A stretch of 60,447 bases of DNA from positions 1-60,447 of the forward strand of contig SLPC01000048.1 of assembly GCA_007132185.1 (NCBI GenBank), given 5' to 3'. The translations under genes were made by a program, and so were the position numbers. Positions within the stretch are counted from its first letter, which is position 1. Each line of letters starts with the position of its first letter. The DNA is from Anaerolineae bacterium (lineage in GTDB: Bacteria > Chloroflexota > Anaerolineae > UBA1429). Positions 2,755 through 60,317 of the stretch are shown in pieces. Under the pieces are notes generated by a model. That model saw only the letters and a list, made by a program, of their open reading frames with translations. It searched no databases and was not told the DNA's origin.

Positions 2755-5700
2755 AACGTACCCTTGTACTCGCATTGTGCCTACTGGTCTTGCTCGGCGC
2801 TCTTGTCGGTTGCGGCGCGGGTGAGGGCCTGCCGACCCCGGTACCCGCGTTGGAGGCAGAGGCGCCAGCATTTGTGGTTCTGCCCGAAGCGACGGTCATG
2901 CCGATGCCAACCGACGTGCCGCCACGCCTGCTGCATCAGATCCCGGCGCGGGGAGAGGAGCTGGCCCTCGACGGCATTCTCGAGCTGATCTTTGATCAGC
3001 CGATGGATCGCGCCAGCGTGGAAAGAGCGTTGCGCATCTCGCCCGACGTTGCGGGACGTGTCGAATGGCCCGCCGACGATACGCTACGCTTTGTGCCCGA
3101 GCCGGGCGCATGGGAGCGTGACGGCGTGTACAGCGTCCTTGTGGACACCACGGCCAGAGCTGCGACCGAGCTGGAGCTCGCCCGTGAGGTCAGCTTTCGC
3201 TTTCGGACCGTGGGCTATCTCGAGGTGGCCGATCTGTTCCCGCGCCCCGATAGCGAGCACACCAGCCCCGAGTCCCAGATCACCGTCATCTTTAACCGCC
3301 CCGTGGTGCCCCTCACCGCCATCGAGGAGCAACGTGGGCTGCCGCAGCCTCTGAGCCTTTCGCCCAACGTTGCCGGAAAGGGTGCCTGGATCAACACCTC
3401 GATCTACCAGTTCACGCCCTCCGAACGGCTGCTGGCGGGCACCACCTATACCGCCACCGTAGACGCCGGGCTGGAGGCCGCAGGAGCCGTCCTGGCCGAG
3501 AGCTACCAGTGGTCCTTCACGACCGAGGTGCCGGCCGTGCTCGCTGTAGAGCCCCTGCCTGACGCACACCTCGTAGACCCCGCCACGGCCATCACGCTGA
3601 CCTTTGGCCAGGAGATGGACCGTATCTCGGTGCGGGAGCGTTTTGCCCTGCTGTCCCCCATGGGGGAGGATGTCGCGGGCCGCGTAACATGGGATGACAC
3701 CACGCTACGCTTTATCCCGAGCGAGCCTCTGACCCGCGGCACCGAGTACACCATCCTCCTAGAGTCTGGCGCGCAGGCCGCCCAGGGCGATGCGGAAATC
3801 CCGCAAGAAGAGGTCTGGCACTTTACGGTGGCGCCCCTGCCGGCGGTGGTCCTTACGCGTCCCGCACAGGACGCCACCGGGGTGAGCACGTGGGAATCGA
3901 TGCAGGTCAGCTTTTCTGCCCCCATGGACCGGGCCAGCGTGGAGGAGACCCTGACCATCACGCCGACGGCGCAGACGTACCTGTTCTGGCAGAACGACGA
4001 TACCGAGCTATGGCTCTCTGGCGCCCTGGGCCCATCTACCCAATACACCGTCACCGTTCCTGCCGAGGCACTGGATCGCTTTGGCGAACCGTTGACCGAG
4101 GCCCTTGTCTGGCGGTTCGAGACGAGACCCCTGGAACCATCGCTGACCCTCGTGACCCAGGGGCCGGTGGGTGTGTACAACGTCCACACCGACAGCGGCC
4201 TAACGGTGCGCCATGTGAACATCGCGCAGGCAGATTTCGAGCTATACTCCCTGTCCCCTGCTGAACTGGTGACCCTGATCCGCGACGGCGGTTGGCCTGA
4301 ATGGGACCGGTACCGACCGCGCTCGCAAGACCAGATCGCGACCTGGTCCGAGCGCCTTGAGGCCGAACTGAACCAGAGCCGCAGCGTGGTCACGCGCCTG
4401 GCACCCGCACTTTGGGAGCCGCTGCCCTCGGGGATCTATGTCTTGCGGGCCACAGCCCCCGAGGTGCGCCGCGCCGAGCACCACATCCTGGTCATGACAA
4501 CGATGAACGTGACTCTCAAGACCGCCCCTGAGCAGGCGTTGGTCTGGGTCACGGATCTGCGCGATGGACAACCCATGGCGGGCGTGGACGTGCTCCTGTA
4601 TGGCGCCATGGGCCGTGAGGTAGACCGCGGACGCACGGACGCGGACGGGCTGCTGGAGCTATCGCCGCCCGAGCAGTGGCGCTGGGAGAGCCTTATCGCC
4701 ATTGCCTATGACGGCGACGACATTGGCGTGGCGGCAAACCAGTGGAGCGAGGGCATCCAGCCCTGGTCTTACAATCTGCCCGTAGCCTGGGAGACACACG
4801 ACTATAGCGGCTACTTTTACACCGAGCGACGCATCTATCGGCCGGGGCAGACCGTCTATTTCAAGGGCTGGCTGCGCGCCGATGACGACATGGCTTTCAG
4901 CATGCCCTCGATGGACGAGCCTGTGCGCGTGACGCTGATGGACAGCCATGGCCGTGAGGTATGGCAGGACGAGCTCGCTCTCAGCGAGATGGGCGCCCTC
5001 GATGGCCAGATCATCCTGGGGGATGATGCGCCCCTGGGGTACTATGTGCTGGTGTTCCGCTATGCCGGCGAGTACTGGGAGGCATCGTTCCAGGTTGCCG
5101 AGTACCGTCGGCCCGAGTTTCAGGTCACGGTCACGGCAGAGCAAGAGGTCATTTCTAGCGTGCCGCTGGAGGTCGCCGTTGCCGCCGAGTTCTATTTCGG
5201 CGGCCCCGTGTCGGATGCCGACGTGCTCGTGCGCGTGTTCGGCGAGCCCTACTTCTACGATCGGTACCAGGGCACAGAGTACTATAGCTTTGGCGACTAT
5301 GACCATGAGGACCGCGAGGCGCGCACCCTCGATATGGGCCTGCTGACCGAAGAGCGTGGACGCACCGACGAGCAGGGGCGCCTGAACATCATCGTCCCCA
5401 CCGAGCTGCAGGGCTTTCAGAGCCGTCGCTTTTTGGTCGAGACGTCGGTGGTGGATGTTGACAATCAGGAGGTCACTGGCCGTACGGCCCTGATCGTGCA
5501 CAAGGGCGATCTCTATGTGGGCCTGACCGCCGAGAGCTATGTGGGCGCCGCCAACCAGCCCATGAGCATCGGCCTGCTTACCCTGGACGCGCAGGGCGAG
5601 CAGGCCATCCGCCAGCGCGTGGATCTCGTGGTGGCGCGCCAGGAGTGGTACAGCGTGCAGCAGCGCGGCACCGACGGCAACTACTACTGGGAGAATCAGG

Positions 5701-9926: not shown

Positions 9927-10311
9927 AGTCGTCTCGACCCTCGAGGCGACTCAGCTCATCCTCAGAAAAGCCAAAGTGGTGGGCGATCTCATGGATGATG
10001 GTGCGTTGCACCAGATCCACCAGGTGCGCCTCGTCACGCGCCACCATCTCGAGCGGGCGCTGGAACAGCGTGATCCGATCGGGGGGCGTCAGATGGTATC
10101 GGCCACCCCGCCGCGAGAGAGGCACTCCCTCATAGAGTCCCAGCAGCAGCGAGTTTCGGCCCACACGGGTGCTCTGCATCTGGTGGCGGCTGGGCCAGAC
10201 GGCCGTGGTGATAAATACATTCTCCATATGTTCCCCAATCCACTCGGGGAGCGATTCCACCGCCTCGGCCACCAGTTGATCGAATCTATCGGTATCAAGA
10301 CCCAACATCAA
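9925..10311 (-). CDS. Minimal zincin-like metallopeptidase family protein (DUF1025-like)
   Basis: 128 aa with a single HExxH (IIHEIAHHFGFSEDEL). It lies 8 nt downstream of rqcH on the same strand. Confidence 0.65.
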   Translation of the reverse strand: MMLGLDTDRFDQLVAEAVESLPEWIGEHMENVFITTAVWPSRHQMQSTRVGRNSLLLGLYEGVPLSRRGGRYHLTPPDRITLFQRPLEMVARDEAHLVDLVQRTIIHEIAHHFGFSEDELSRLEGRDD

Positions 10312-10318
10312 ACGCTCC

Positions 10319-12079
10319 TCAGCTATCGTTATCTGCTGGTGGATGAGGCGCCACCACCAGCGTTTCTTCCTGTCGATATGTTACCATACCCGGGCGCCCG
10401 CCGGGTATTCGTCTGACATGTCGCCGCTCGGTGACATCCACCGGCACCTGACTCTCCTCACGCAGTGACGAGTAGTAGGCCGCCAGCGACGCCGCCTGGG
10501 CGATCACCTCGTCGGGCACGGGCTGGCCGCCATGCCGCACGATCACATGGGCGCCGGGCGCCCCACGCACGTGCAGCCACAGGTCGCGAGGGCCACTCAG
10601 CCGGAATGTGACGACGTCATTCTGGCGGCTGTTGCGCCCCACGAGGATCGCGATGCCGTCCTCGAGGGCAATGCGCAGCGGCTCGCTGGCCGCCGCATGC
10701 TCGCGGCGCCGGCCCTGGCGCGGTACATAGCCCGCCTCTTGCAGGGCCTCCCGCACCTGATCCAGGGCGGGACGATCATCGGCCAGCTCCGCATCAGTGC
10801 GTAACTGCTCCAGATAGGCGATCTCGGCCTCAACTTCGGCCATGCGCTGGGGCACCTGCTTGGCCGCAGCTTCCCGCTTGCGATACTCGCGAAAGATCGC
10901 CTGCGCGTTCTCCGAGGGCGTCAGAGCCGGGTCGAGGCGAATGGTGATGGTCTCGTCGGCTTTGGGCCCTGTCTCGCCCGTCACCTGAGAGCGCGTAACC
11001 TGGAGCGCCTCCTGGCCGGGGGCGATCTGCCATGTCATGGCCAAGATTGCATTGCCGCGAAACTGTAGCTCCTCCAACTCGTCGGGGGCCACGGCAGCGC
11101 GTTCCAGCGAGGCCAACCGCCCCCGCTGGCGCTCGAGTTGGTCGTCGATCAGGGCGACGAGATCGGCCCGGGCCTGGGCGTAGGGATCGGGTGGGCGCAT
11201 CGGGCCCAACGCCAGGGCCGCGGCCTGCGCCACCGAGGGGATCGGCTCCCAGGCGTCCAGATGGGTCAGGCGATAGGGCGCATAGGCCACGGCCGTGCGG
11301 CCCATGGCCGTGGTCCCCACGGCTTGCACCTGATAGCCGATCGATGGCTCCCAGGCATGGGTCTGGGGCAGACGCATCAAGGCCTGCAACACCTCGTGCA
11401 ATCGAGCCAGCGTGTCGTCATCCAGAGGCCAGGCGTCCCCATCGTCGCCGCTGGCGCGATGCACGATCTCGCGTGCCAGCAGAGGGCTCACCCCAAGGAC
11501 TGCGTTCACCAGCCGCCGAGGCAATGCTCCGCTCTGACCAGCAAGCGCTGCGCCTAGCTCGGCCGGCGAGACATGCAGGGGGTGGAGCTTGTCCTGGGGA
11601 GGCGGCGGCACATAAGCGATGCCGGGCAGAATCTCGCGGTAACGGTTGATGCGGGCGGGGATACGCTTGGCTGCATCGAGGATGGCACCATCGTCATCGA
11701 CCAGGATCAGGTTGCTCAGGCGTCCCATCACTTCGCAGATCAGTTCTACAGCGCCCTCGGGCCCCGCAAAGCGCCAATGCACGATGCGCTCCAGATCGGG
11801 CTGCTCCAGGGCCACCAGACGGGCGCCACGGACGTATTTGCGCAGCAAGAGTTGGAGGGGCGAGGCCGAATCGGCGCCACGACGCAAGCGCTCCTCGGTA
11901 AGAGCGATGCGCGGCGACTGCGCTTCGGCGCTCAAGAGCACCTGGTGGCGCTGGCCGGTATAGATCTCCAGCCCGATGCTCAACTCGGTGGGGCGTATCA
12001 CCCGCTGCACACGTCCCCCCAGCAACTCCCCCGCCAGCTCGTCGCGTATCGCCGCCAAGGTGAGCATATCCTGGCTCAT
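10319..12079 (-). CDS. rqcH: NFACT / FbpA-family ribosome quality control protein (Rqc2 homologue)
   Basis: 586 aa. N-terminal NFACT-N-like region, central coiled coil (EAEIAYLEQLRTDAE), and a C-terminal NFACT-R/DUF814 block DLWLHVRGAPGAHVIV. Confidence 0.8.
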   Translation of the reverse strand: MSQDMLTLAAIRDELAGELLGGRVQRVIRPTELSIGLEIYTGQRHQVLLSAEAQSPRIALTEERLRRGADSASPLQLLLRKYVRGARLVALEQPDLERIVHWRFAGPEGAVELICEVMGRLSNLILVDDDGAILDAAKRIPARINRYREILPGIAYVPPPPQDKLHPLHVSPAELGAALAGQSGALPRRLVNAVLGVSPLLAREIVHRASGDDGDAWPLDDDTLARLHEVLQALMRLPQTHAWEPSIGYQVQAVGTTAMGRTAVAYAPYRLTHLDAWEPIPSVAQAAALALGPMRPPDPYAQARADLVALIDDQLERQRGRLASLERAAVAPDELEELQFRGNAILAMTWQIAPGQEALQVTRSQVTGETGPKADETITIRLDPALTPSENAQAIFREYRKREAAAKQVPQRMAEVEAEIAYLEQLRTDAELADDRPALDQVREALQEAGYVPRQGRRREHAAASEPLRIALEDGIAILVGRNSRQNDVVTFRLSGPRDLWLHVRGAPGAHVIVRHGGQPVPDEVIAQAASLAAYYSSLREESQVPVDVTERRHVRRIPGGRPGMVTYRQEETLVVAPHPPADNDS

Positions 12080-13200
12080 GGTGCGGCGCCCGGCGAGGGG
12101 GGTAAATCATCCAGGATACCGGCCAGGTGCCCGACGCCATAGTGGCCGTGGATGCGGAGCCGCTTGAGCTCGAACAGACCATCGGAGCGATGCTCTGCGC
12201 CGAACTGGATGGTCACTGCCGCCCAATAGTCGAGCTCGCGCAGCACCGTGATCCCCAGGGCATCATAGCGCCCCGCAGGATAGCAGAAAATACGCACCGG
12301 CTTGCCGGTACGGGCCTCGATGGCCTCTTTGGAGCCCAGCATCTGCCAGATCAGATAATCCCGTGAGCGGCCTTTGAGGTCATCGTGAGTATAGCCGTGG
12401 GGCTCCATCGACATGCCTGCGGCGTCCATCTCGATCACCTGGTCCCAGCTCAGATACGCGGGATGCTCCTGGTCGATGACACTGGTGATCACGAAAAAGG
12501 TGCCGGTCATACCGTACTGCTGCAACAGGGGAAATGCATTGTCATAGTGATCCCGATAGCCATCGTCAAAGGTGAGCACGATGGGCCTGTCGGGCAGGGG
12601 CTGCCCGATCTGCAACGACATCACCACCTCTTCCAACGATATCGTCGTATAGCCCCGCTCCTGCAGGAAACGCAGATGCGCCTCGAATTGAGCGGGAGGC
12701 ACTGACAGGTCCCGGCGAACGCGACCAGCATTCGCGGGCGGTTCAGAGATATAGTGGTACATCAGGATGGGCACCTGCACGGTGCGCATCACGCCATCGG
12801 GCGTCGGCAGCGGGCGTGGCGTAGCGGTGGGCTCAAGCGTTGGCAGAGCCAACGCCGTTGGCTCGGGTGCCGCCGTTGGCTCCGGCGTCTCAGTTGGCGC
12901 CAATGTGGGCTTGGGCGTCGGCGTGAAGCTGGGCTCTGGGGACGGTATTGGCGTCAGGCTGGGGAGCGGGGTCTCGGTGGCAGGAGCCAACGCTTCATAG
13001 GCGGGCATGGGCGTGTATCCCATCGGATCATTCTGTCCCTGCCAACTCTGTCGCGCGAGGAGGCCCAGTACGAGGGCCAGCCCAACGCTGAAAACGGCGC
13101 CCATCAGGCGCCGTCCGCTCTTGAACCAGCCGCGTACCTGTCTCCAGTGCATTGCAGTATACCCTCGCATGATCTTAGCGTCAGAGGCATTCTCTGTCAA
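12076..13200 (-). CDS. Membrane-anchored polysaccharide deacetylase (NodB homology domain)
   Basis: TM helix, then a P/T-rich linker (PTPKPTLAPTETPEPTAAPEPT), then the NodB motif LTFDDGYRDHYDNAFPLLQQYGMTGTFF. Its stop overlaps the rqcH start by 4 nt (ATGA on the minus strand, 12076-12079). Confidence 0.85.
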   Translation of the reverse strand: MTENASDAKIMRGYTAMHWRQVRGWFKSGRRLMGAVFSVGLALVLGLLARQSWQGQNDPMGYTPMPAYEALAPATETPLPSLTPIPSPEPSFTPTPKPTLAPTETPEPTAAPEPTALALPTLEPTATPRPLPTPDGVMRTVQVPILMYHYISEPPANAGRVRRDLSVPPAQFEAHLRFLQERGYTTISLEEVVMSLQIGQPLPDRPIVLTFDDGYRDHYDNAFPLLQQYGMTGTFFVITSVIDQEHPAYLSWDQVIEMDAAGMSMEPHGYTHDDLKGRSRDYLIWQMLGSKEAIEARTGKPVRIFCYPAGRYDALGITVLRELDYWAAVTIQFGAEHRSDGLFELKRLRIHGHYGVGHLAGILDDLPPSPGAAP

Positions 13201-13235
13201 AAGCCAGGGTCAGAAGGAACACACATATGACCGAT

Positions 13236-13263
13236 TTGCATTCACATCAATTCCGTCTATGCT
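13236..13263 (+). promoter_or_regulatory. Candidate sigma-70-type promoter for the T-box/trp operon
   Basis: TTGCAT (13236-13241), 16-nt spacer, TATGCT (13258-13263), about 25 nt upstream of the T-box Stem I base. Confidence 0.35.
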
Positions 13264-13287
13264 GGGGTTCAACTGAATCGTGAGACA

Positions 13288-13657
13288 AAAGCGATGACCG
13301 GGTAGAGTAGATCGCGTAATGAGGCTCAGAGAGTCGGGATAAGGTGAGAGCCCGATGCCTACGGCGCGGTTGAATGGCCCCGTGAGCTGTGCGCCGAACG
13401 CAAGCCGTACAACGTACGGCCATGCTACTAGTCCGCACCGGATGCGCGCCCCGTTAGCAGAGCGCAGGATATCGGGCTCATGTCCCCGCGAGCGATCTGC
13501 GCCCCGTATCTGACAAGAGAGGTTGGCTTGCATCATCACCCGTCTTGGACGGGTGTTTTTTGTTAGAGCCAACAAGGTGGGTGGCACCGTGTGGAGTTAT
13601 ACGGCTCCTCGCCCCACTGTGGATTGTACCGCAGTGTGGTGAGGGGCCTTTTTTTGT
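13288..13657 (+). promoter_or_regulatory. T-box riboswitch leader, Trp specifier (UGG), with intrinsic terminator
   Basis: Elements in canonical order. GA/K-turn GCGATGA (13291-13297) plus AGAGTA. AG bulge CAGAGAG and distal loop GGTGAGAG (13328-13350). Specifier-loop GAA-TGG (TGG at 13375-13377). F-box CCGTTA (13451-13456). Stem III-like hairpin CACCCGTC-TTGG-GACGGGTG (13537-13556). T-box AACAAGGTGGGTGGCACCGTG (13571-13591). Terminator CCTCGCCCCACTG...CAGTGTGGTGAGGGG followed by T7 (about 13607-13657). Confidence 0.8.
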
Positions 13658-13699
13658 TGTCAGATCACGATCGATCACCCGGGAGGCAGGGAGGTCAGC

Positions 13700-15187
13700 A
13701 TGTACGTAGAAAACAGGGTTGAGGAACGGATACTGGAGCCGGTGGTGCGCGAGTTGCCGGCCGACATGGACACGCCTATCTCGATCTATGCCAAGCTGCG
13801 CGGGCTGGGCGCCTCATTTCTGCTCGAGTCCGTCGAAGGGGGCGAGCACATGGGGCGTTACTCGTTCATCGGGACGCACCCCCGCGCTCTGCTGCGCGCC
13901 TGGCCCGACCGCATCGTCCTGGAGGAGGAGGGGCATTGGCGGTCGTTCGACCCGGAGCAGAACAGTGTTCTGGACGTGCTGCGCGAGAACCTGCCCACCT
14001 ATCGGGGCCAGATGCCCGAGGGCCTGCCCCGCTTTACCGGCGGCGCCGTCGGGTTCATGAGCTATGACCTGGTGCGCAGCTTTGAGCGACTCCCCAACCG
14101 CCCCGCCGACACCCTGGGGTTGCCCGATGCAGCATTCCTGCTGTGCGACCGCCTGGTGGCTTATGACCATCTGCGCCATCGGTTGGTGGTCATTGCCCAC
14201 CGGCGGCCCGCTGACTCGAAGCTTGCCTCTGAGCAAGAGGCCGAGGCCGCCATCGACGAGATCGTGGCGCGCCTGAACCGGCCTCTGCCCAACCAGTACC
14301 AACCTGAACCGGCGCCCCCGACTGTGGACGACGAGTTCGCCTCGCTGTTCGACCAGGGGACCTTTGAGGATGCGGTGCGGCAGGCCAAGGAGCATATCGC
14401 CGCGGGCGACATCTTTCAGGTGGTGCTCTCGCGGCGCATGCATCGGCGCACCCACGCCCAGCCCTATGATATCTACCGCGCGCTGCGTCGGGTGAACCCC
14501 TCGCCTTACATGTTCTACCTGGAGCTCCCGGACGGCCTGCGGCTGATCGGCTCCTCGCCCGAGGTGCTGGTGCGAGTGGAAGATGGCGTGGTCGAGTCGC
14601 GACCTCTGGCTGGCACCCGCCCCCGGGGCGCCAACGAGGCCGAGGACCGCGAGTTGGAGGCCGATCTGTTGGCCGACCCCAAGGAGCGCGCCGAGCACGT
14701 GATGCTGGTGGACCTGGCCCGCAACGATCTGGGCCGCGTGTGCGAGTACGGCACGGTGCATACGCCCCTGATGATGGGCGTCGAACGCTACTCTCACGTG
14801 ATGCACATCGTGTCGGATGTCCAAGGTCAGCTGGCCAAGGGCCAGGATGCCTTTGACGTGCTGGCGGCAAGCTTTCCCGCGGGCACCGTGTCGGGGGCGC
14901 CCAAGGTGCGGGCCATGGAGATCATCGATGCGCTAGAGCCCGAGGCGCGCGGCCCCTATGCCGGCGCCGTGGGCTATTTCGGCTACTCGGGCAACATGGA
15001 CACCTGTATCACCATCCGCACCATCGTGATGCGCGGCGACGAGGTGTACCTGCAGGCGGGGGCCGGCATCGTCGCCGACTCGGACCCCACCACCGAGTAC
15101 CACGAGACCGACAACAAGCTGCGGGCGCTCTCAAGGGCGCTGGCCCTGGCCGAGCAAGAGGCGCAGCAAAAGGGAGGCTCAAAGTGA
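13700..15187 (+). CDS. trpE: Anthranilate synthase component I
   Basis: Chorismate-binding motifs: LAGTRPRG, GTVSGAPKVRAMEII, GPYAGAVGYF, IRT. RBS GGGAGG upstream. Confidence 0.92.
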   Translation: MYVENRVEERILEPVVRELPADMDTPISIYAKLRGLGASFLLESVEGGEHMGRYSFIGTHPRALLRAWPDRIVLEEEGHWRSFDPEQNSVLDVLRENLPTYRGQMPEGLPRFTGGAVGFMSYDLVRSFERLPNRPADTLGLPDAAFLLCDRLVAYDHLRHRLVVIAHRRPADSKLASEQEAEAAIDEIVARLNRPLPNQYQPEPAPPTVDDEFASLFDQGTFEDAVRQAKEHIAAGDIFQVVLSRRMHRRTHAQPYDIYRALRRVNPSPYMFYLELPDGLRLIGSSPEVLVRVEDGVVESRPLAGTRPRGANEAEDRELEADLLADPKERAEHVMLVDLARNDLGRVCEYGTVHTPLMMGVERYSHVMHIVSDVQGQLAKGQDAFDVLAASFPAGTVSGAPKVRAMEIIDALEPEARGPYAGAVGYFGYSGNMDTCITIRTIVMRGDEVYLQAGAGIVADSDPTTEYHETDNKLRALSRALALAEQEAQQKGGSK

Positions 15188-47141: not shown

Positions 47142-47170
47142 TTGACAGCCGTTACTTTCTCATACATAAT
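47142..47170 (+). promoter_or_regulatory. Strong sigma-70-type promoter with no gene behind it
   Basis: TTGACA (47142-47147), 17-nt spacer, CATAAT (47165-47170). Confidence 0.55.
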
Positions 47171-55639: not shown

Positions 55640-57673
55640 CTAGGCCTCAAAGAACCACTGCTCCGGAAACTCGGGGAAGGACCAGAGGGTATCCCAGGTC
55701 CACAGACCACCATGTTCGCTGACATTCTTGAGGTTATTTCGAATGAACAGCGGGTGGGGCGCATTGCCGATGGCGCCAATGGTCCAGACATGCTCGGCCT
55801 GGCTCTCCAGAACCCTAGCGGCCGGCTCATTCTCATCGGTGAGGTTGTACTCATCCATCCAGTCGTATAGGTCTTTGATCACTTGCGGGGGCTCTTCGCC
55901 CATGTCGCCGCCGGTGTTGTACCAGCGACCCCACAACACGCCCCAGCAGCTCTCGTCACCGTCCAGCGGCGTAAAGAACTTGGGCCGGCGCAGGAACAGG
56001 GTATCAGCCGACTCGTCGCCGTGCCACAACGACATCGGCTCTTCGTTGGCGATGATCTTTTGCGTCAGAAGCGTGCGGGTGATCGACTGCCACCGGATCT
56101 CGATGCCGACAGCCTTCCAGTACTCTTCCACCAGCTCGGTGATGGGGCCCTTGGGCGTCTCGGTCTCGACCAGGTCCCAGCCGATGATGATCGGAGTCTT
56201 GCTTACAGGCCAGAGCCTGTGGGTGCCAGCGGCGTTCCACTCCAGGCCCATCTCGTCCAACAGCGCATTGGCCCGATCCCGATCGAACTCGGCATATGCC
56301 TGGGCGTACTCGGGCTTGTAGTGCCGCGAGGCCGGGATGACAGTCATCTGCGTCTCACTGGCGTTGCCAAAGTAGATGACGTCGTTGATGTCGCCCCGGT
56401 TGATGGCCAGCGACAGCGCCTGGCGGAAGCGGTCATCGGAGAACACCTCGCGCCACTCTTCTTCTTCCCAGTTCATATTGACGTTGTAGACCACTTCGCC
56501 GCCCTTGCCCGACTCCCACAGAATCATGCGCGCATCGGACTGGGCCGCGCCGTCTGCATACGTGGCATAGTACAGGATACGCAACTGGAATGCGGCGAAA
56601 TCATAGGTGCCGCCCACGACCTTGGCATCAAAGACCGACAGGTCCGCAGCGCGATCCATGTTGATCTGGTCGATGTAGGGAAGCTGATTCCCCTCGGGGT
56701 CCACTGCATGATAGTAAGGGTTCCGCTCGAGGAATACCATGGTCGGCGTGTCGCGAACAGGGACATAAGTCTCCAAGAAAGGCCGATCGATGTTCTGGCC
56801 GCGGTTGTTCTTCTGGCCATGATTCTGATACCAGAAATCAAAGCCATCTTCCTTCGCCAGATCTTCAGCCTTGTCATTGTACTTGATGTCAAACTGCTTC
56901 AGATAGTGGGCGGGGCAGAAGGTCTGGTTACCCCAAAAGCCGTACAAGTGAGCCATGTTGACCAGCACAAACGACGGATGCGGCTGGGCAAAGGTGAGCT
57001 TGAAGGTATAGTCATCGATGATGTCAAGCTCCATGATCTGGCCGCCGGGGCGGAACCACATGCCGGGCACCGGGGTGATCTCGGTGTCCAGAAGAATATC
57101 CTCAAACCAGTAGCGGATATCCTCGGTGGTCAGCGGCGCGCCATCGGACCATTTCATGCCCCTGCGCATGTAGCACGTGATCTCGGTAAAGTCATCGCTG
57201 ACTTCCCAGTCCTTCATGATATGCGGCACGGCGTGGGTCGCATCTTTCGAGATGCGCAACCAGTTGGGACGATCCATAGCCATATGGACATCGCCACCAG
57301 ACAGGTTCATGGTCAGGTCACCGACAGTCAGGGTGCCACCATAGTCGCCAATCCGCTCGTAGACTTCACAGACGCGGGGCTCCTCAGGCAGGCGCTCGTC
57401 CACAGGCGGGAGCTCGCCACGTGCAACGCGGGCAGCTAACATGGGGGACTCGCCGTACTTGTCGGGCGGAGGCGCGACCTCGACCTCTTTTTCGACGATG
57501 ACTTCCTTCTCGACGACTACTTCCTTTTCGACCTCTTTTTCGACGATAACCGTCTCTTGGACGATCTTTTCGACCACCTCAGGCTCACGAGCGCAGGCTG
57601 CTATGGCTACGCCAGCGGCTGTCAGGCTGGTCAGTCGAATAAAGTCGCGACGCGTGTGCTTCTTCAGATCCAT
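55640..57673 (-). CDS. ABC transporter substrate-binding lipoprotein, family 5 (oligopeptide/oligosaccharide type), Tat-type signal
   Basis: Signal RRDFIRLTSLTAAGVAIAA|C, then a V/E tether, then a large family-5-like body. RBS GGAGG lies 6 nt before the ATG. Confidence 0.8.
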   Translation of the reverse strand: MDLKKHTRRDFIRLTSLTAAGVAIAACAREPEVVEKIVQETVIVEKEVEKEVVVEKEVIVEKEVEVAPPPDKYGESPMLAARVARGELPPVDERLPEEPRVCEVYERIGDYGGTLTVGDLTMNLSGGDVHMAMDRPNWLRISKDATHAVPHIMKDWEVSDDFTEITCYMRRGMKWSDGAPLTTEDIRYWFEDILLDTEITPVPGMWFRPGGQIMELDIIDDYTFKLTFAQPHPSFVLVNMAHLYGFWGNQTFCPAHYLKQFDIKYNDKAEDLAKEDGFDFWYQNHGQKNNRGQNIDRPFLETYVPVRDTPTMVFLERNPYYHAVDPEGNQLPYIDQINMDRAADLSVFDAKVVGGTYDFAAFQLRILYYATYADGAAQSDARMILWESGKGGEVVYNVNMNWEEEEWREVFSDDRFRQALSLAINRGDINDVIYFGNASETQMTVIPASRHYKPEYAQAYAEFDRDRANALLDEMGLEWNAAGTHRLWPVSKTPIIIGWDLVETETPKGPITELVEEYWKAVGIEIRWQSITRTLLTQKIIANEEPMSLWHGDESADTLFLRRPKFFTPLDGDESCWGVLWGRWYNTGGDMGEEPPQVIKDLYDWMDEYNLTDENEPAARVLESQAEHVWTIGAIGNAPHPLFIRNNLKNVSEHGGLWTWDTLWSFPEFPEQWFFEA
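57476..57583 (-). repeat. Short tandem GAG/GTC-type repeats encoding a V/E-alternating tether
   Basis: Encodes PEVVEKIVQETVIVEKEVEKEVVVEKEVIVEKEVEV directly after the lipobox. Confidence 0.8.
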
Positions 57674-58085: not shown

Positions 58086-59213
58086 CTACTCGAGAGTCTG
58101 CGTCTGCTGGTTGCGCGCCCAAGCGGCCACCAGCTTGACCCGCTCGATGGCCTCGGGCCCGGCGCCTTCGGGCACCTCATCGGAGATGCCCAATACCAGG
58201 CGTGGGTGAAACAACGCCAAGATACGTTCTACCGTGGACATGAGCTCATCAAGGCTATAAGACGGCATAAAGAGCACCGCCGGGATACCATCCAGCAGGA
58301 TCTTGTCGCCCAGATGCTCGGCCATCTCTTCCAGAGTGACATCCCCCTGAGGCTCGGGGGTCAACGCTTCCAGACCATCAAAGGGCAGATCCTTGAGGTA
58401 GGGCAGCAGCGAGTGGAAATAACCGTCGAGGTGGATATGAGTAAAGATACCGGCGCGGGCGAATTGCCCGGCACGCTTTGCATACCAGGGCAACAGGTAC
58501 CGCTCGAACCAGGCCGGTGAAAAGAGGCTATCGTGGAGATTCTCGCCAAAGTTGACGATCTGCACGTCATCGCAGCTCGTGATCTGCTCATACAACGGGT
58601 CATAGGCATCATCGATAGCCTGCATCACATCGGTCACCAGCCCCGGCACATCGGCAATGGCGTACACCAGATCGGGCAGCTTCATCCACCACTGGGCCAA
58701 CGCCTGATACGGGCTCTTGGGTACCCAGAACTGGGGCACCCCCCGCTCGCCAACAAAGAGGCTCCCTGCGGTAAACAGGTCCCGCGAAAAGCTATAGCGG
58801 GTGTGCCGCAGGAGCCAGAGCAGGGCGCGGAGGTCCTCGGGGCCTTTGACCGGGAAATCCACGACGCGCCAGGTCTTGTCGCGGGTCAGATGCTGCCGCT
58901 CCACCAGCTCCCCCCGGGGCGTTACGAACACGCGGGTCTTTAGGGGGCCCTCAGTTGACTCGTGCAGTGTAACCGCCTGGTCATACTCGACCCGAACCGG
59001 CGAGGGCAGATCGGTGTAATAGTCAAAGGTGCGCATGCTACAGTCACATGCATCATAGAATTGGCGCATGTCCATGTCACGATAGGTCTCAGGGAGGGCG
59101 TCAAAGATCCGGTGCCAGGCGAACCAGGGTTCCATGCGGGGTTGAAACAGAACGTGGGGGATTGGCTCGCGCTGAAATAGGCGCAGGTTCATCTCTCGAA
59201 AACTCATGACCAT
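58086..59213 (-). CDS. Uncharacterised protein (possibly uroporphyrinogen-decarboxylase-like TIM barrel; tentative)
   Basis: 375 aa. ATG 59213 lies 6 nt after GGAGG (minus strand). Coding composition is good. I recognised no diagnostic motif with confidence. Confidence 0.6.
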   Translation of the reverse strand: MVMSFREMNLRLFQREPIPHVLFQPRMEPWFAWHRIFDALPETYRDMDMRQFYDACDCSMRTFDYYTDLPSPVRVEYDQAVTLHESTEGPLKTRVFVTPRGELVERQHLTRDKTWRVVDFPVKGPEDLRALLWLLRHTRYSFSRDLFTAGSLFVGERGVPQFWVPKSPYQALAQWWMKLPDLVYAIADVPGLVTDVMQAIDDAYDPLYEQITSCDDVQIVNFGENLHDSLFSPAWFERYLLPWYAKRAGQFARAGIFTHIHLDGYFHSLLPYLKDLPFDGLEALTPEPQGDVTLEEMAEHLGDKILLDGIPAVLFMPSYSLDELMSTVERILALFHPRLVLGISDEVPEGAGPEAIERVKLVAAWARNQQTQTLE

Positions 59214-59304
59214 GTGGCCCCTCCTAGACGGATCATGTCTATACAGCGGGCGCAGCATAGCAGCAGTAGACGGGAGACGTCAACGCAGAGCGAGGGTATC
59301 GCCG

Positions 59305-59342
59305 AACGACAAAAGGGGCATGGCACCATTGCGCCACGCCCC
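59305..59342 (-). terminator. Intrinsic terminator (minus strand)
   Basis: On the minus strand: GGGGCGTGGC-8 nt-GCCATGCCCC (10 bp, one G-U pair) followed by TTTTGTCGTT. Confidence 0.65.
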
Positions 59343-60282
59343 TTGTAGACAAGACAGAACCCCAAGTGACCTTTGATCAGTAATCCATTGCTTTACTGGC
59401 TGATCTTCCGAGATCGTTCTCGCCTCGTCTATATCGTTCCTGATGCTGACGGGTTACCGTGCCAGTCATCATTTCCGATCTTTCAAGTTCGAGATGTCTA
59501 CTCTCGGACTGTCTTTTCACTGGCTCGCTTCACTTGTCTTTTCAACAAGCTACTTGCTTGTGGGTCTTTCAAACTGACTCTCAGATATCCTCTGAACTGG
59601 CCCTCTTACTCGATCCGCTCCGGACGGATCTTTTAGTGAGCGTGCTGCTCTGCTTTGGCTCTCGTTGTCAGACGATTGCCTTTGCTTTGCATCTCGCCCT
59701 TTTTGGTTCTTTCCTCGTCAGGGTTTTTACCCCTGACTCGTTTCGGAACCTCTGGGTTCGTTCTTCCTAGAACCTCTCTCTTGTGGGTTGTTAGACCACA
59801 AGTTATGAGACTCTATTTTGAGCATTGGCCCTTCCGTCTACTCAGAGTCTCTAGCTATTGCTATTGACTCGAGCTTTCTTCAGAGATCTCCCATCAGGAG
59901 GAACCATTCTTACGTGGTTCTCTTCCATCTGAGTCGTGATTCCTTTACCTGCTGATGGATTTCTCCATCGCCCTGCAAAAGTCTCTTGACCCTTTGCCTT
60001 CCACCATGGATACTTTCGGGTTCGCCCGGTATCACAGGCCTTCCCTGCTGTTCCTAGTTTCCAGCTCTGAGATCTCCCTTTCCGGTGTTATGCTGCTCCC
60101 TTTCGGGTTGGTACCTTGCACCTTCTTGGGCTTTGCTCTTTGTTAATCTGACGAGTCGCCTACAGTTTGAGCGACCTACTCCCGTGAGCAGTGCAGATGT
60201 TCTGCTCTGGTCACGTTTGCCAGTTTCCCGACTGTCAGGCCAGTTCCGCTGTGGAACTGTCATCAACCTCTCGGGGTCCTGT
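59305..60282 (-). ncRNA. Candidate large purine-rich noncoding RNA of about 980 nt (class unknown)
   Basis: It runs from the near-consensus promoter at 60317-60289 to the terminator at 59342-59305. The only minus-strand ORF of 60 aa or more is the basic low-complexity reading 60054-60410, whose start lies upstream of the promoter; from its internal Met at 60263 it is 69 aa. The plus strand is about 70% pyrimidine in the lines I counted. Multiple 5-7 bp hairpins are present, some GAAA-capped. Confidence 0.45.
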
Positions 60283-60288
60283 AAAAGT

Positions 60289-60317
60289 ATAATAGCATAC
60301 GTGAGCTGAATTGTCAA
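60289..60317 (-). promoter_or_regulatory. Near-consensus sigma-70-type promoter (closest to consensus in the window)
   Basis: On the minus strand: TTGACA (60317-60312), 17-nt spacer, TATTAT (60294-60289). Confidence 0.6.

Follow-up and report, generated by a model that had tools for sequence, protein, structure and literature searches.

A probable large structured RNA of a new family next to an orphan protein gene in an Anaerolineae bacterium

What is encoded by the kilobase of DNA, poor in open reading frames (ORFs), near the high-coordinate end of contig SLPC01000048.1? The contig belongs to an Anaerolineae bacterium of the Chloroflexota (assembly GCA_007132185.1) and was analysed over 60,447 nucleotides, which we refer to as the window; the interval in question occupies positions 60317-59305 of the minus strand. 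A preliminary description, made from the letters alone, had regarded it as an autonomous, non-coding transcription unit and had considered a large structured RNA, a protein-sponge RNA or, as an alternative, a giant attenuated leader of the downstream gene. According to our analysis it is very probably a genuine gene for a large structured non-coding RNA of a new family. The unit is conserved, its helices covary, it is non-coding in character and it is independent of the genes around it. The RNA of the window is the long form of a family that also comprises short forms of 270-305 nt; neither Rfam 15 nor the literature searched contains this family.

Relatives of the unit were sought via the protein of 375 aa encoded downstream of it (p375) in one genome per GTDB species, yielding two Anaerolineales metagenome-assembled genomes (MAGs), L001 and L002. 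In both, a homologue of the whole unit lies directly upstream of the p375 gene (nhmmer E = 5e-78 and 1.5e-98). Nucleotide identity of the RNA amounts to 66-68% between the window and the MAGs and to 79% between L001 and L002, and the first 30 nt as well as the last 27 nt are conserved in the three-way alignment. The minimum free energy of the minus strand is -371 kcal/mol compared with -282±7 kcal/mol for dinucleotide shuffles (z = -12), with the 5' and 3' ends paired to each other; the opposite strand reaches -348 kcal/mol (z = -8.9). RNAalifold proposed 296 pairs for the three sequences, of which seven spurious ones outside the RNA were dropped and 289 counted. In these pairs 93.9% of the cells are paired, a value inflated because one alignment was used both to derive the structure and to count its pairs. 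Compensatory double changes, whose counts are less affected by this, occur in 65 of the 289 pairs; column shuffles gave 28.2±3.9 and none of 500 reached 65, and slid controls with the partner column moved by 1-3 positions, likewise less affected, contained 7-12. Evidently, double changes lie above both shuffled and slid controls and the folding energy lies far below that of the shuffles. The large structured RNA that had been proposed is thereby supported, with conservation and covariation both found in the relatives.

Two further, nearly identical contigs were found through a neighbouring gene for a solute-binding protein (SBP): L105, an ENA contig of 76 kb whose sequence is all but the same as this part of the window, and L106, which stems from another sample. 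Within the RNA the window differs from both at two sites only, 60001 and 59621 (G to A in each case), which are unpaired in the consensus. The RNA is present once per locus, with no second copy elsewhere in the 60-kb window or in any homologue locus. Tandem or dispersed repeats of note were not found within the unit. The unpaired columns were also examined for conserved tertiary or kissing contacts of 5 bp or more and for conserved palindromic pairing, and neither was detected.

The unit is bracketed by its own transcription signals. On the minus strand the promoter scan identified a sigma-70-type promoter (60317-60289) with TTGACA at 60317-60312, a 17-nt spacer and TATTAT at 60294-60289, matching 11 of the 12 consensus positions and carrying a TG at 60297-60296 that completes an extended -10 element (TGcTATTAT, 60297-60289); the same layout precedes every full-length short form. 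The whole-window scan listed two other sites with 11/12 matches, at 47142 (+) (TTGACA-17-CATAAT) and 42642 (+) (TTGACA-17-TATACT). The preliminary description had called the promoter the best in the window; its 11/12 score was reproduced, and among all sites with at least 10/12 it alone combines 11/12 with the TG, but it shares the score itself with these two sites. The predicted start is the A at 60282, the seventh base after the end of the -10 element (60289) and at the same time the first base of P1, the helix that joins the two ends of the RNA, so that the RNA body, which is supported by fold, covariation and identity, would span 929 nt (60282-59354), with the two strands of P1 at its ends. 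Downstream, the terminator scan revealed an intrinsic terminator with a G+C-rich stem of 14 bp, nine of them G-C pairs (59344-59313), followed by TTGTCGTT; the entire element (59344-59305) consists of this stem, a 4-nt loop and the tract UUGUCGUU. The clean terminator reported at about 980 nt is thus found: the promoter is followed by ~975 nt, at the end of which this strong terminator lies, and the RNA including 3' tail and terminator would measure ~978 nt.

Both signals are conserved in the homologues. The -35 box and the extended -10 element (TATGCTATnAT) are invariant across the window, L001 and L002, and the terminator hairpin is preserved in both MAGs via seven double changes (helix 47), with an equivalent terminator following every short form. 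The element accordingly appears as a transcription unit of its own.

The base composition of the interval is consistent with a folded RNA. Within the 60-kb window this is the only interval with a strong purine/pyrimidine asymmetry between the strands. Over 59345-60285 the plus strand contains 63% pyrimidine (T 34%, C 29%), and up to ~66% in 300-nt windows; the asymmetry described earlier is therefore real, although the figure of ~70% was too high. Likewise the drop in GC stood up (0.46-0.53 in the unit vs 0.56-0.67 in the flanks), with flanks nearer 60% than the ~65% assumed. The RNA body is composed of 34% A, 29% G, 21% C and 16% U, and its unpaired positions of 42-48% A and 8-13% U. Unpaired positions rich in A and poor in U are usual for folded RNAs, and we ascribe the purine richness of the RNA to this signature.

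With respect to a coding function, a minus-strand ORF of 69 aa (60263-60054) and the L/S/F-rich ORFs of the plus strand are present as listed earlier, none of them with a Pfam match. The unit might be the mRNA of a small basic protein, namely this 69-aa ORF, or the remnant of a decayed protein gene, and L001, a relative with a higher G+C content, indeed has ORFs of up to 244 aa. In both L001 and L002, however, the 69-aa ORF has GAG in place of its ATG, and its frame is broken by stops and indels. The lengths of most indel runs (14 of 16, 15 of 17 and 6 of 7) cannot be divided by three, and mismatches are distributed over the codon phases as 85/105/106, without 3-base periodicity. Furthermore, Pfam searches with 13 ORFs from the three genomes, including the longer ORFs that arise in the relatives, gave no match, and no gene was called in this region of L105 and L106. 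In the absence of a conserved frame, of a codon-phase bias and of similarity to a protein family, the unit is non-coding, as originally suggested, and we put the chance of either coding explanation close to nil.

The numerous GGA-rich purine tracts had also led to the idea of a protein sponge. In a sponge of the CsrB/RsmZ type a short purine motif, for instance GGA, would recur many times and titrate an RNA-binding protein, and the purine content (63% of the RNA) and the many GGA and GAAA strings would fit this. Measured against dinucleotide shuffles, these strings occur at the level set by composition (GGA 25 vs 27.9±3.6 expected, GAAA 14 vs 12.8±2.9). No 5-mer or 6-mer occurs more than seven times, tandem or dispersed repeat units are missing, and the hairpin loops are mostly GNRA or idiosyncratic instead of GGA, so that GGA loops repeated beyond composition were not found. 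The deep, nested covariation moreover argues for one defined fold and not for an array of equivalent sites. A sponge is not supported by these data and appears scarcely plausible.

Metagenome contigs were scanned with a 17-mer of the invariant 3' end, which resulted in 85 stretches, ~20 of them real homologues. Twelve are complete short-form RNAs of the length given above, and each exhibits a TTGACA-17-TGnTAnnAT promoter placed for a start at P1, the 5' motif (A/G)CAGAGCCYCGAGRGRUUGAUGA, the same terminal rod as the long form and a terminator a few bases past P1. The best-sampled subgroup folds into the rod and a junction with five hairpins, four of which are capped by GCAA or GAAA, i.e. by GNRA loops. 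From this subgroup a covariance model (R1) of 88 positions was built for the sub-domain of the hairpins Ha and Hb, and it recovers all other short forms. In this core, 15 of 28 pairs are double-changed compared with 6.8±1.7 in shuffles and 1-5 in slid controls, for an alignment that was guided by the model, fitted to the structure and hence leaning towards it. Against the long forms, R1 produced weak matches over the Ha region of L002 (E 0.019) and L001 (E 0.1) but did not match the window. Locally, long and short forms also resemble each other in Hc and in the 3' domain.

Some short-form loci show peculiarities of their own. In the best-sampled subgroup ~150 nt beyond the terminator are conserved too (…CGGCUCAGYKAUGGYUGAAACGSCGCUGUAG…; L077 5770-5960, L063 450-646 (-), L029 496-690, L036 and L039); the next ORFs differ in position and orientation, and the stretch could be a second small conserved element. 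Two rearranged copies on independent contigs, L032 254-420 (-) and L100 410-545, retain only the last ~35 nt and the terminator, joined to unrelated sequence with CCCCAAGUGA, a possible pairing partner of the retained UCACUUGGGG. In L037 (1028-1192) the RNA begins inside Hb directly after coding-looking sequence, which may indicate an assembly chimera or a truncated gene.

The short forms also bear on the relation of the unit to p375. The p375 gene (58086-59213, minus strand) follows the RNA on the same strand at a distance of ~90 nt, and this order is kept in six loci (window, L105, L106, L001, L002 and L067), all of them in the long-form clade. Such synteny would be expected if the unit were a giant cis-acting 5' leader or attenuator of p375 with the terminator as a regulated stop. 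The short forms, however, possess the same promoter, rod and terminator beside unrelated and sometimes convergent genes, and therefore behave as a free-standing gene and not as a leader: their neighbours include an ABC permease, a tyrosine integrase, an amidase, a convergent nitroreductase, an ABC ATPase, an AIR-synthase-like protein and an aldo-keto reductase. Thus no constant class of downstream gene is found across the family. An expression platform was not apparent either, as the terminator lies 6-25 nt past P1 without evident alternative pairing and overlaps P1 in no member, and Rfam reveals no resemblance to riboswitches or leaders. The p375 protein is 70-82% identical on the amino acid level within the Anaerolineales and ~60% identical in anammox Brocadiia MAGs, whose homologues (L003-L005) lack such an RNA, and it has a candidate promoter of its own at 59283-59254 (TTGACG-18-TATGCT), found as described before and matching 9/12 positions. 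Since p375 is constant only in the long-form clade and the terminator is clear of P1, we regard a cis-regulatory role as highly unlikely. The leader alternative of the preliminary description is therefore contradicted by the short-form contexts and the RNA-free Brocadiia, while its view of the unit as autonomous is corroborated by the same promoter and terminator beside unrelated genes.

Sequence searches with p375 in Pfam, NCBIfam and PDB gave no match; it represents an orphan family of patchy distribution, possibly horizontally transferred. Three segments of the RNA (60081-60100, 59831-59842 and 59643-59657) are complementary over 11-17 nt (76-92%) to 59248-59291 in the gap between terminator and p375, where the candidate p375 promoter is located; this is probably due to chance in GCAGCA-rich sequence.

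The long form itself, all of it on the minus strand, is organised as follows. The P1 5' strand ACAGGACCCCGAG (60282-60270) starts at the predicted transcription start and pairs with 59366-59354; all 13 pairs are retained in the three long and in 11 short forms, with the terminal pair swapping from A-U to G-C. The 5' half of the terminal rod continues at 60268-60253 with P1b (GGUU), the GA half of a 2x2 GA/AA purine loop and P2 (UGACAGUUCC), which pair with 59367-59384. Its 3' half (59384-59354) reads CUGAUCAAAGGUCAC followed by the P1 3' strand CUUGGGGUUCUGU (59366-59354) and includes a 27-nt block that is invariant in the three long forms. Altogether P1, P1b (GGUU/GGUC), the 2x2 GA/AA loop and P2 constitute a rod of ~30 bp that is conserved in sequence as well as in pairing, and the motif GAGRGRUUGAUGA is common to long and short forms. 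Inward of the rod, two short helices (GUC/GAC and ACUGGC/GCCAGU) with a GGGAA/GAAAA loop between them lead to a junction that carries Ha, a very large nested domain and Hc. Hairpin Ha comprises RNA positions 68-100 (60215-60183; columns 136-171 of alignment A1) and contains compensatory changes. The nested domain, taken to be the expanded Hb, covers ~620 nt (RNA 104-723, 60179-59560, A1 columns 175-817), is closed by GUAGGUC/GACCCAC and harbours at least ten covarying helices. Hairpin Hc (GCAAGUA-stem-GUGAAGC, RNA 726-756, 59557-59527, helix 42) has double changes in four of the seven stem pairs and matches the short forms L058, L086 and L092 locally at 82%. The 3' domain, taken to be the expanded Hd (RNA 775-876, 59508-59407, helices 43-46), with the invariant loop CACGGUAAC, contains eight pairs with double changes and is found in L067 as well.

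On comparison, the long form appears to be co-linear with the short form, Hb having grown from ~45 to ~620 nt and Hd from ~24 to ~100 nt, and we infer that the window RNA corresponds to the short-form core with a ~620-nt expansion in one hairpin. A circular permutation of the GGGAA/GAAAA loop was considered and dropped in favour of the co-linear mapping after R1 had matched Ha of L002 and L001, and the idea that the long form harbours a duplicated short form was rejected, as only the ends match. UGAUGA (60263-60258) and CUGA (60237-60234), the latter 20-30 nt downstream in the family, mimic box C/D elements and give rise to spurious archaeal and eukaryotic snoRNA matches in Rfam (E ~6-8). A reading of UGAUGA...CUGA as a k-turn or box C/D motif was discarded: the loop in the rod is a symmetric 2x2 GA/AA loop without a 3-nt bulge, and members of the L058 type lack UGAUGA.

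Does the RNA belong to a known family? Neither the whole window nor 17 homologue loci matched any of the 4227 covariance models of Rfam 15 at the gathering score, among them 6S, RNase P, tmRNA, SRP, OLE, GOLLD, ROOL, HEARO, raiA, group I/II introns and riboswitches. At E ≤ 10, the region and two short forms gave only noise (snoRNA, lncRNA and L31-leader fragments at 10-20 bits vs cut-offs of 35-85), in agreement with the earlier statement that no known RNA class was recognisable. Searches of phage and plasmid collections with blastn gave no match, and a scan of IMG/VR with a 15-mer of the 3' end gave 14 matches, all identified as chance by nhmmer. Full-text literature searches, including the Narunsky 2024 paper, uncovered no description of this RNA. 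Group II introns are distinguished by Domain V, the D1-D6 signatures, a position inside a gene and, in many cases, an ORF for a reverse transcriptase; the unit showed no intron match in Rfam, no host gene and no reverse transcriptase ORF, and it has its own promoter and terminator. As no family membership emerged and all features tested for candidate families failed, the RNA was rated a new class.

Several large RNAs are nevertheless comparable in design. OLE RNA (~600 nt, Bacillota), whose biochemical function is unknown, is likewise large, intricate, stand-alone, restricted to a lineage and supported by covariation (PMC9723947, PMC12054373). The window RNA differs in that it does not match the OLE model, occurs in Chloroflexota/Anaerolineales, is ~50% longer, has relatives of ~270 nt and lacks adjacent partner genes resembling oapA, oapB or oapC. 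GOLLD (~800 nt) and ROOL (~580 nt) are of a similar size class and ornate multi-helix architecture and form RNA-only homo-oligomers (PMC12286853), and the GNRA-capped hairpins of our family could mediate tertiary or quaternary contacts. Unlike these two, the window RNA is not generally linked to prophages or tRNAs (a tRNA was seen in L105 only) and is absent from the phage and IMG/VR collections, and both Rfam similarity and conserved palindromic or kissing-loop pairings are missing. In RNase P RNA, rRNA and group I/II introns a conserved core likewise tolerates large lineage-specific insertions at the tip of a peripheral hairpin, which is an analogy only, for their sequence and structure signatures are absent from the window RNA. 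Altogether, the sequence-conserved rod, the GNRA-capped core hairpins and the large hairpin expansion recall RNAs whose action depends on a particular three-dimensional fold, e.g. RNase P, introns and OLE/ROOL/GOLLD. The window RNA bears no such resemblance to antisense regulators or sponges.

The 6S/Ms1 group deserves separate consideration, as the unit might be a functional analogue, i.e. an abundant RNA that binds RNA polymerase by mimicking an open promoter with a rod and a bubble. It shares with this group an independent gene with a strong promoter and a long irregular helix that joins the ends; in length the short form is close to Ms1 (~300 nt), which was reported to be hard to find by sequence (PMC9130861). 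Yet 6S and Ms1 RNAs are built as a rod that opens into one central bubble between flanking helices (PMC9130861), whereas single-sequence and consensus folds of our RNA agree on a ~30-bp rod that enters a multi-branched, multi-helix junction without a large central bubble. The Rfam models do not match even at E ≤ 10, and a structured expansion of 620 nt is without precedent in that class. We therefore consider a 6S/Ms1-like function very unlikely.

For the new RNA, the following mode of action may be envisaged. A strong promoter of the housekeeping type would start transcription at the first base of P1 and the intrinsic terminator would stop it ~10 nt past the last P1 base, so that both ends would be locked in the ~30-bp rod; the RNA could be stable because both ends are buried in P1. 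The rod would lead into a junction bearing Ha, Hb, Hc and Hd, all small in the short forms, of which Hb would have grown in the lineage of the window to a multi-helix domain of ~620 nt and Hd to ~100 nt. Made at a high level, the RNA might act in trans as a stable, compactly folded particle, either as the scaffold of a ribonucleoprotein (RNP) or as an assembly of RNA alone, comparable to OLE, ROOL and GOLLD, and we judge such a trans-acting RNP or RNA-only scaffold slightly better than an even bet. Since the rod is conserved in sequence and not just in pairing, it suggests a common handle for protein binding, stability or processing, with the Hb expansion as a peripheral, lineage-specific addition. 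The chances are about even that the family is a class of structured RNA new to bacteria and has a biochemical role of its own, as a catalytic core, an RNP core or a particle that assembles itself. It would occur in a basal form of ~270 nt and, in some Anaerolineales, in a form of ~930 nt in which the 620-nt expansion adds a lineage-specific function and is not neutral.

Large structured RNAs outside the ribosome are very rare in bacteria and comprise RNase P, tmRNA, group II introns, OLE, GOLLD, ROOL and few others. All of them have brought to light biology or architecture that had not been expected, the latest example being multimeric RNA-only cages (PMC12286853). If expressed, the RNA of the window would be one of the largest structured RNAs that bacteria possess apart from those of the ribosome, and if it indeed represents a new class, its long form would take over from GOLLD as the largest known bacterial structured RNA that is neither ribosomal nor an intron. 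With an RNA of ~930 nt supported by covariation, a phylum that has been little studied and is for the most part uncultured would contribute a new class, and the family would provide a natural experiment in RNA expansion, with the same core at ~270 nt and with a structured insertion of ~620 nt. As ends, promoter, terminator and a secondary-structure model are defined, in-vitro transcription for cryo-EM or probing, a search of metatranscriptomes and the use of the RNA as bait for partners are feasible.

Several points weigh against this interpretation. Transcription and the exact ends of the RNA are deduced from the signals, and the proposed function is conjectural. The long form is represented by three independent full-length sequences and one 3' fragment (L067), and one alignment served for both prediction and scoring of the fold. 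All short forms were retrieved through one fixed 17-mer, which bounds the sampled breadth of the family and makes their 3' similarity partly a matter of construction; the 5' motif, the promoter position, the terminator and the core hairpins are independent of the search pattern. The mapping of Hb and Hd relies on order, flanking motifs and the weak R1 matches. Finally, p375 always follows the long form in the four lineages seen, so that a local regulatory link keeps a small probability.

The surroundings of the unit also raise the question of mobility, i.e. whether the RNA belongs to a mobile or defence element that travels with integrases or transposases. Upstream of the long form, a methionyl-tRNA synthetase gene is found in L002, genes for GNAT acetyltransferases in L001, and a tRNA-Gly(CCC) together with an AlbA_2/ATPase gene in L105. 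The tRNA-Gly(CCC) gene (L105 7108-7181 (-)) is located just beyond the high-coordinate end of the window, ~170 nt upstream of the RNA promoter and divergent from it; in L106 a DDE_Tnp_1 gene (84-1220), an insertion sequence (IS) transposase, takes its place and ARAGORN finds no tRNA, which points to a strain-level rearrangement at the promoter-proximal flank. Besides this exchange of the IS transposase and the tRNA, the tyrosine integrase upstream of the RNA in L077, the truncated or rearranged copies in L032, L100 and L037 and the occurrence of close short forms in different contexts would fit a mobile element. Against it stand the single copy per locus, with none elsewhere in the 60-kb window, the lack of a recurring partner gene and of terminal repeats flanking the unit, the missing matches in the phage, plasmid and IMG/VR collections, and the synteny of the long form across genomes with a neighbour protein that is 70-82% identical. 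Only a very slim chance thus remains for a mobile or defence element. On a larger scale, the pair of RNA and p375 is flanked by genes for family-5 SBPs (window 55640-57673 and neighbours), of which L105 contains three paralogues of 677-679 aa (3196-5229, 10001-12034 and 12448-14487), and by large ABC permease genes, so that the surroundings look like an island for peptide or oligosaccharide uptake.

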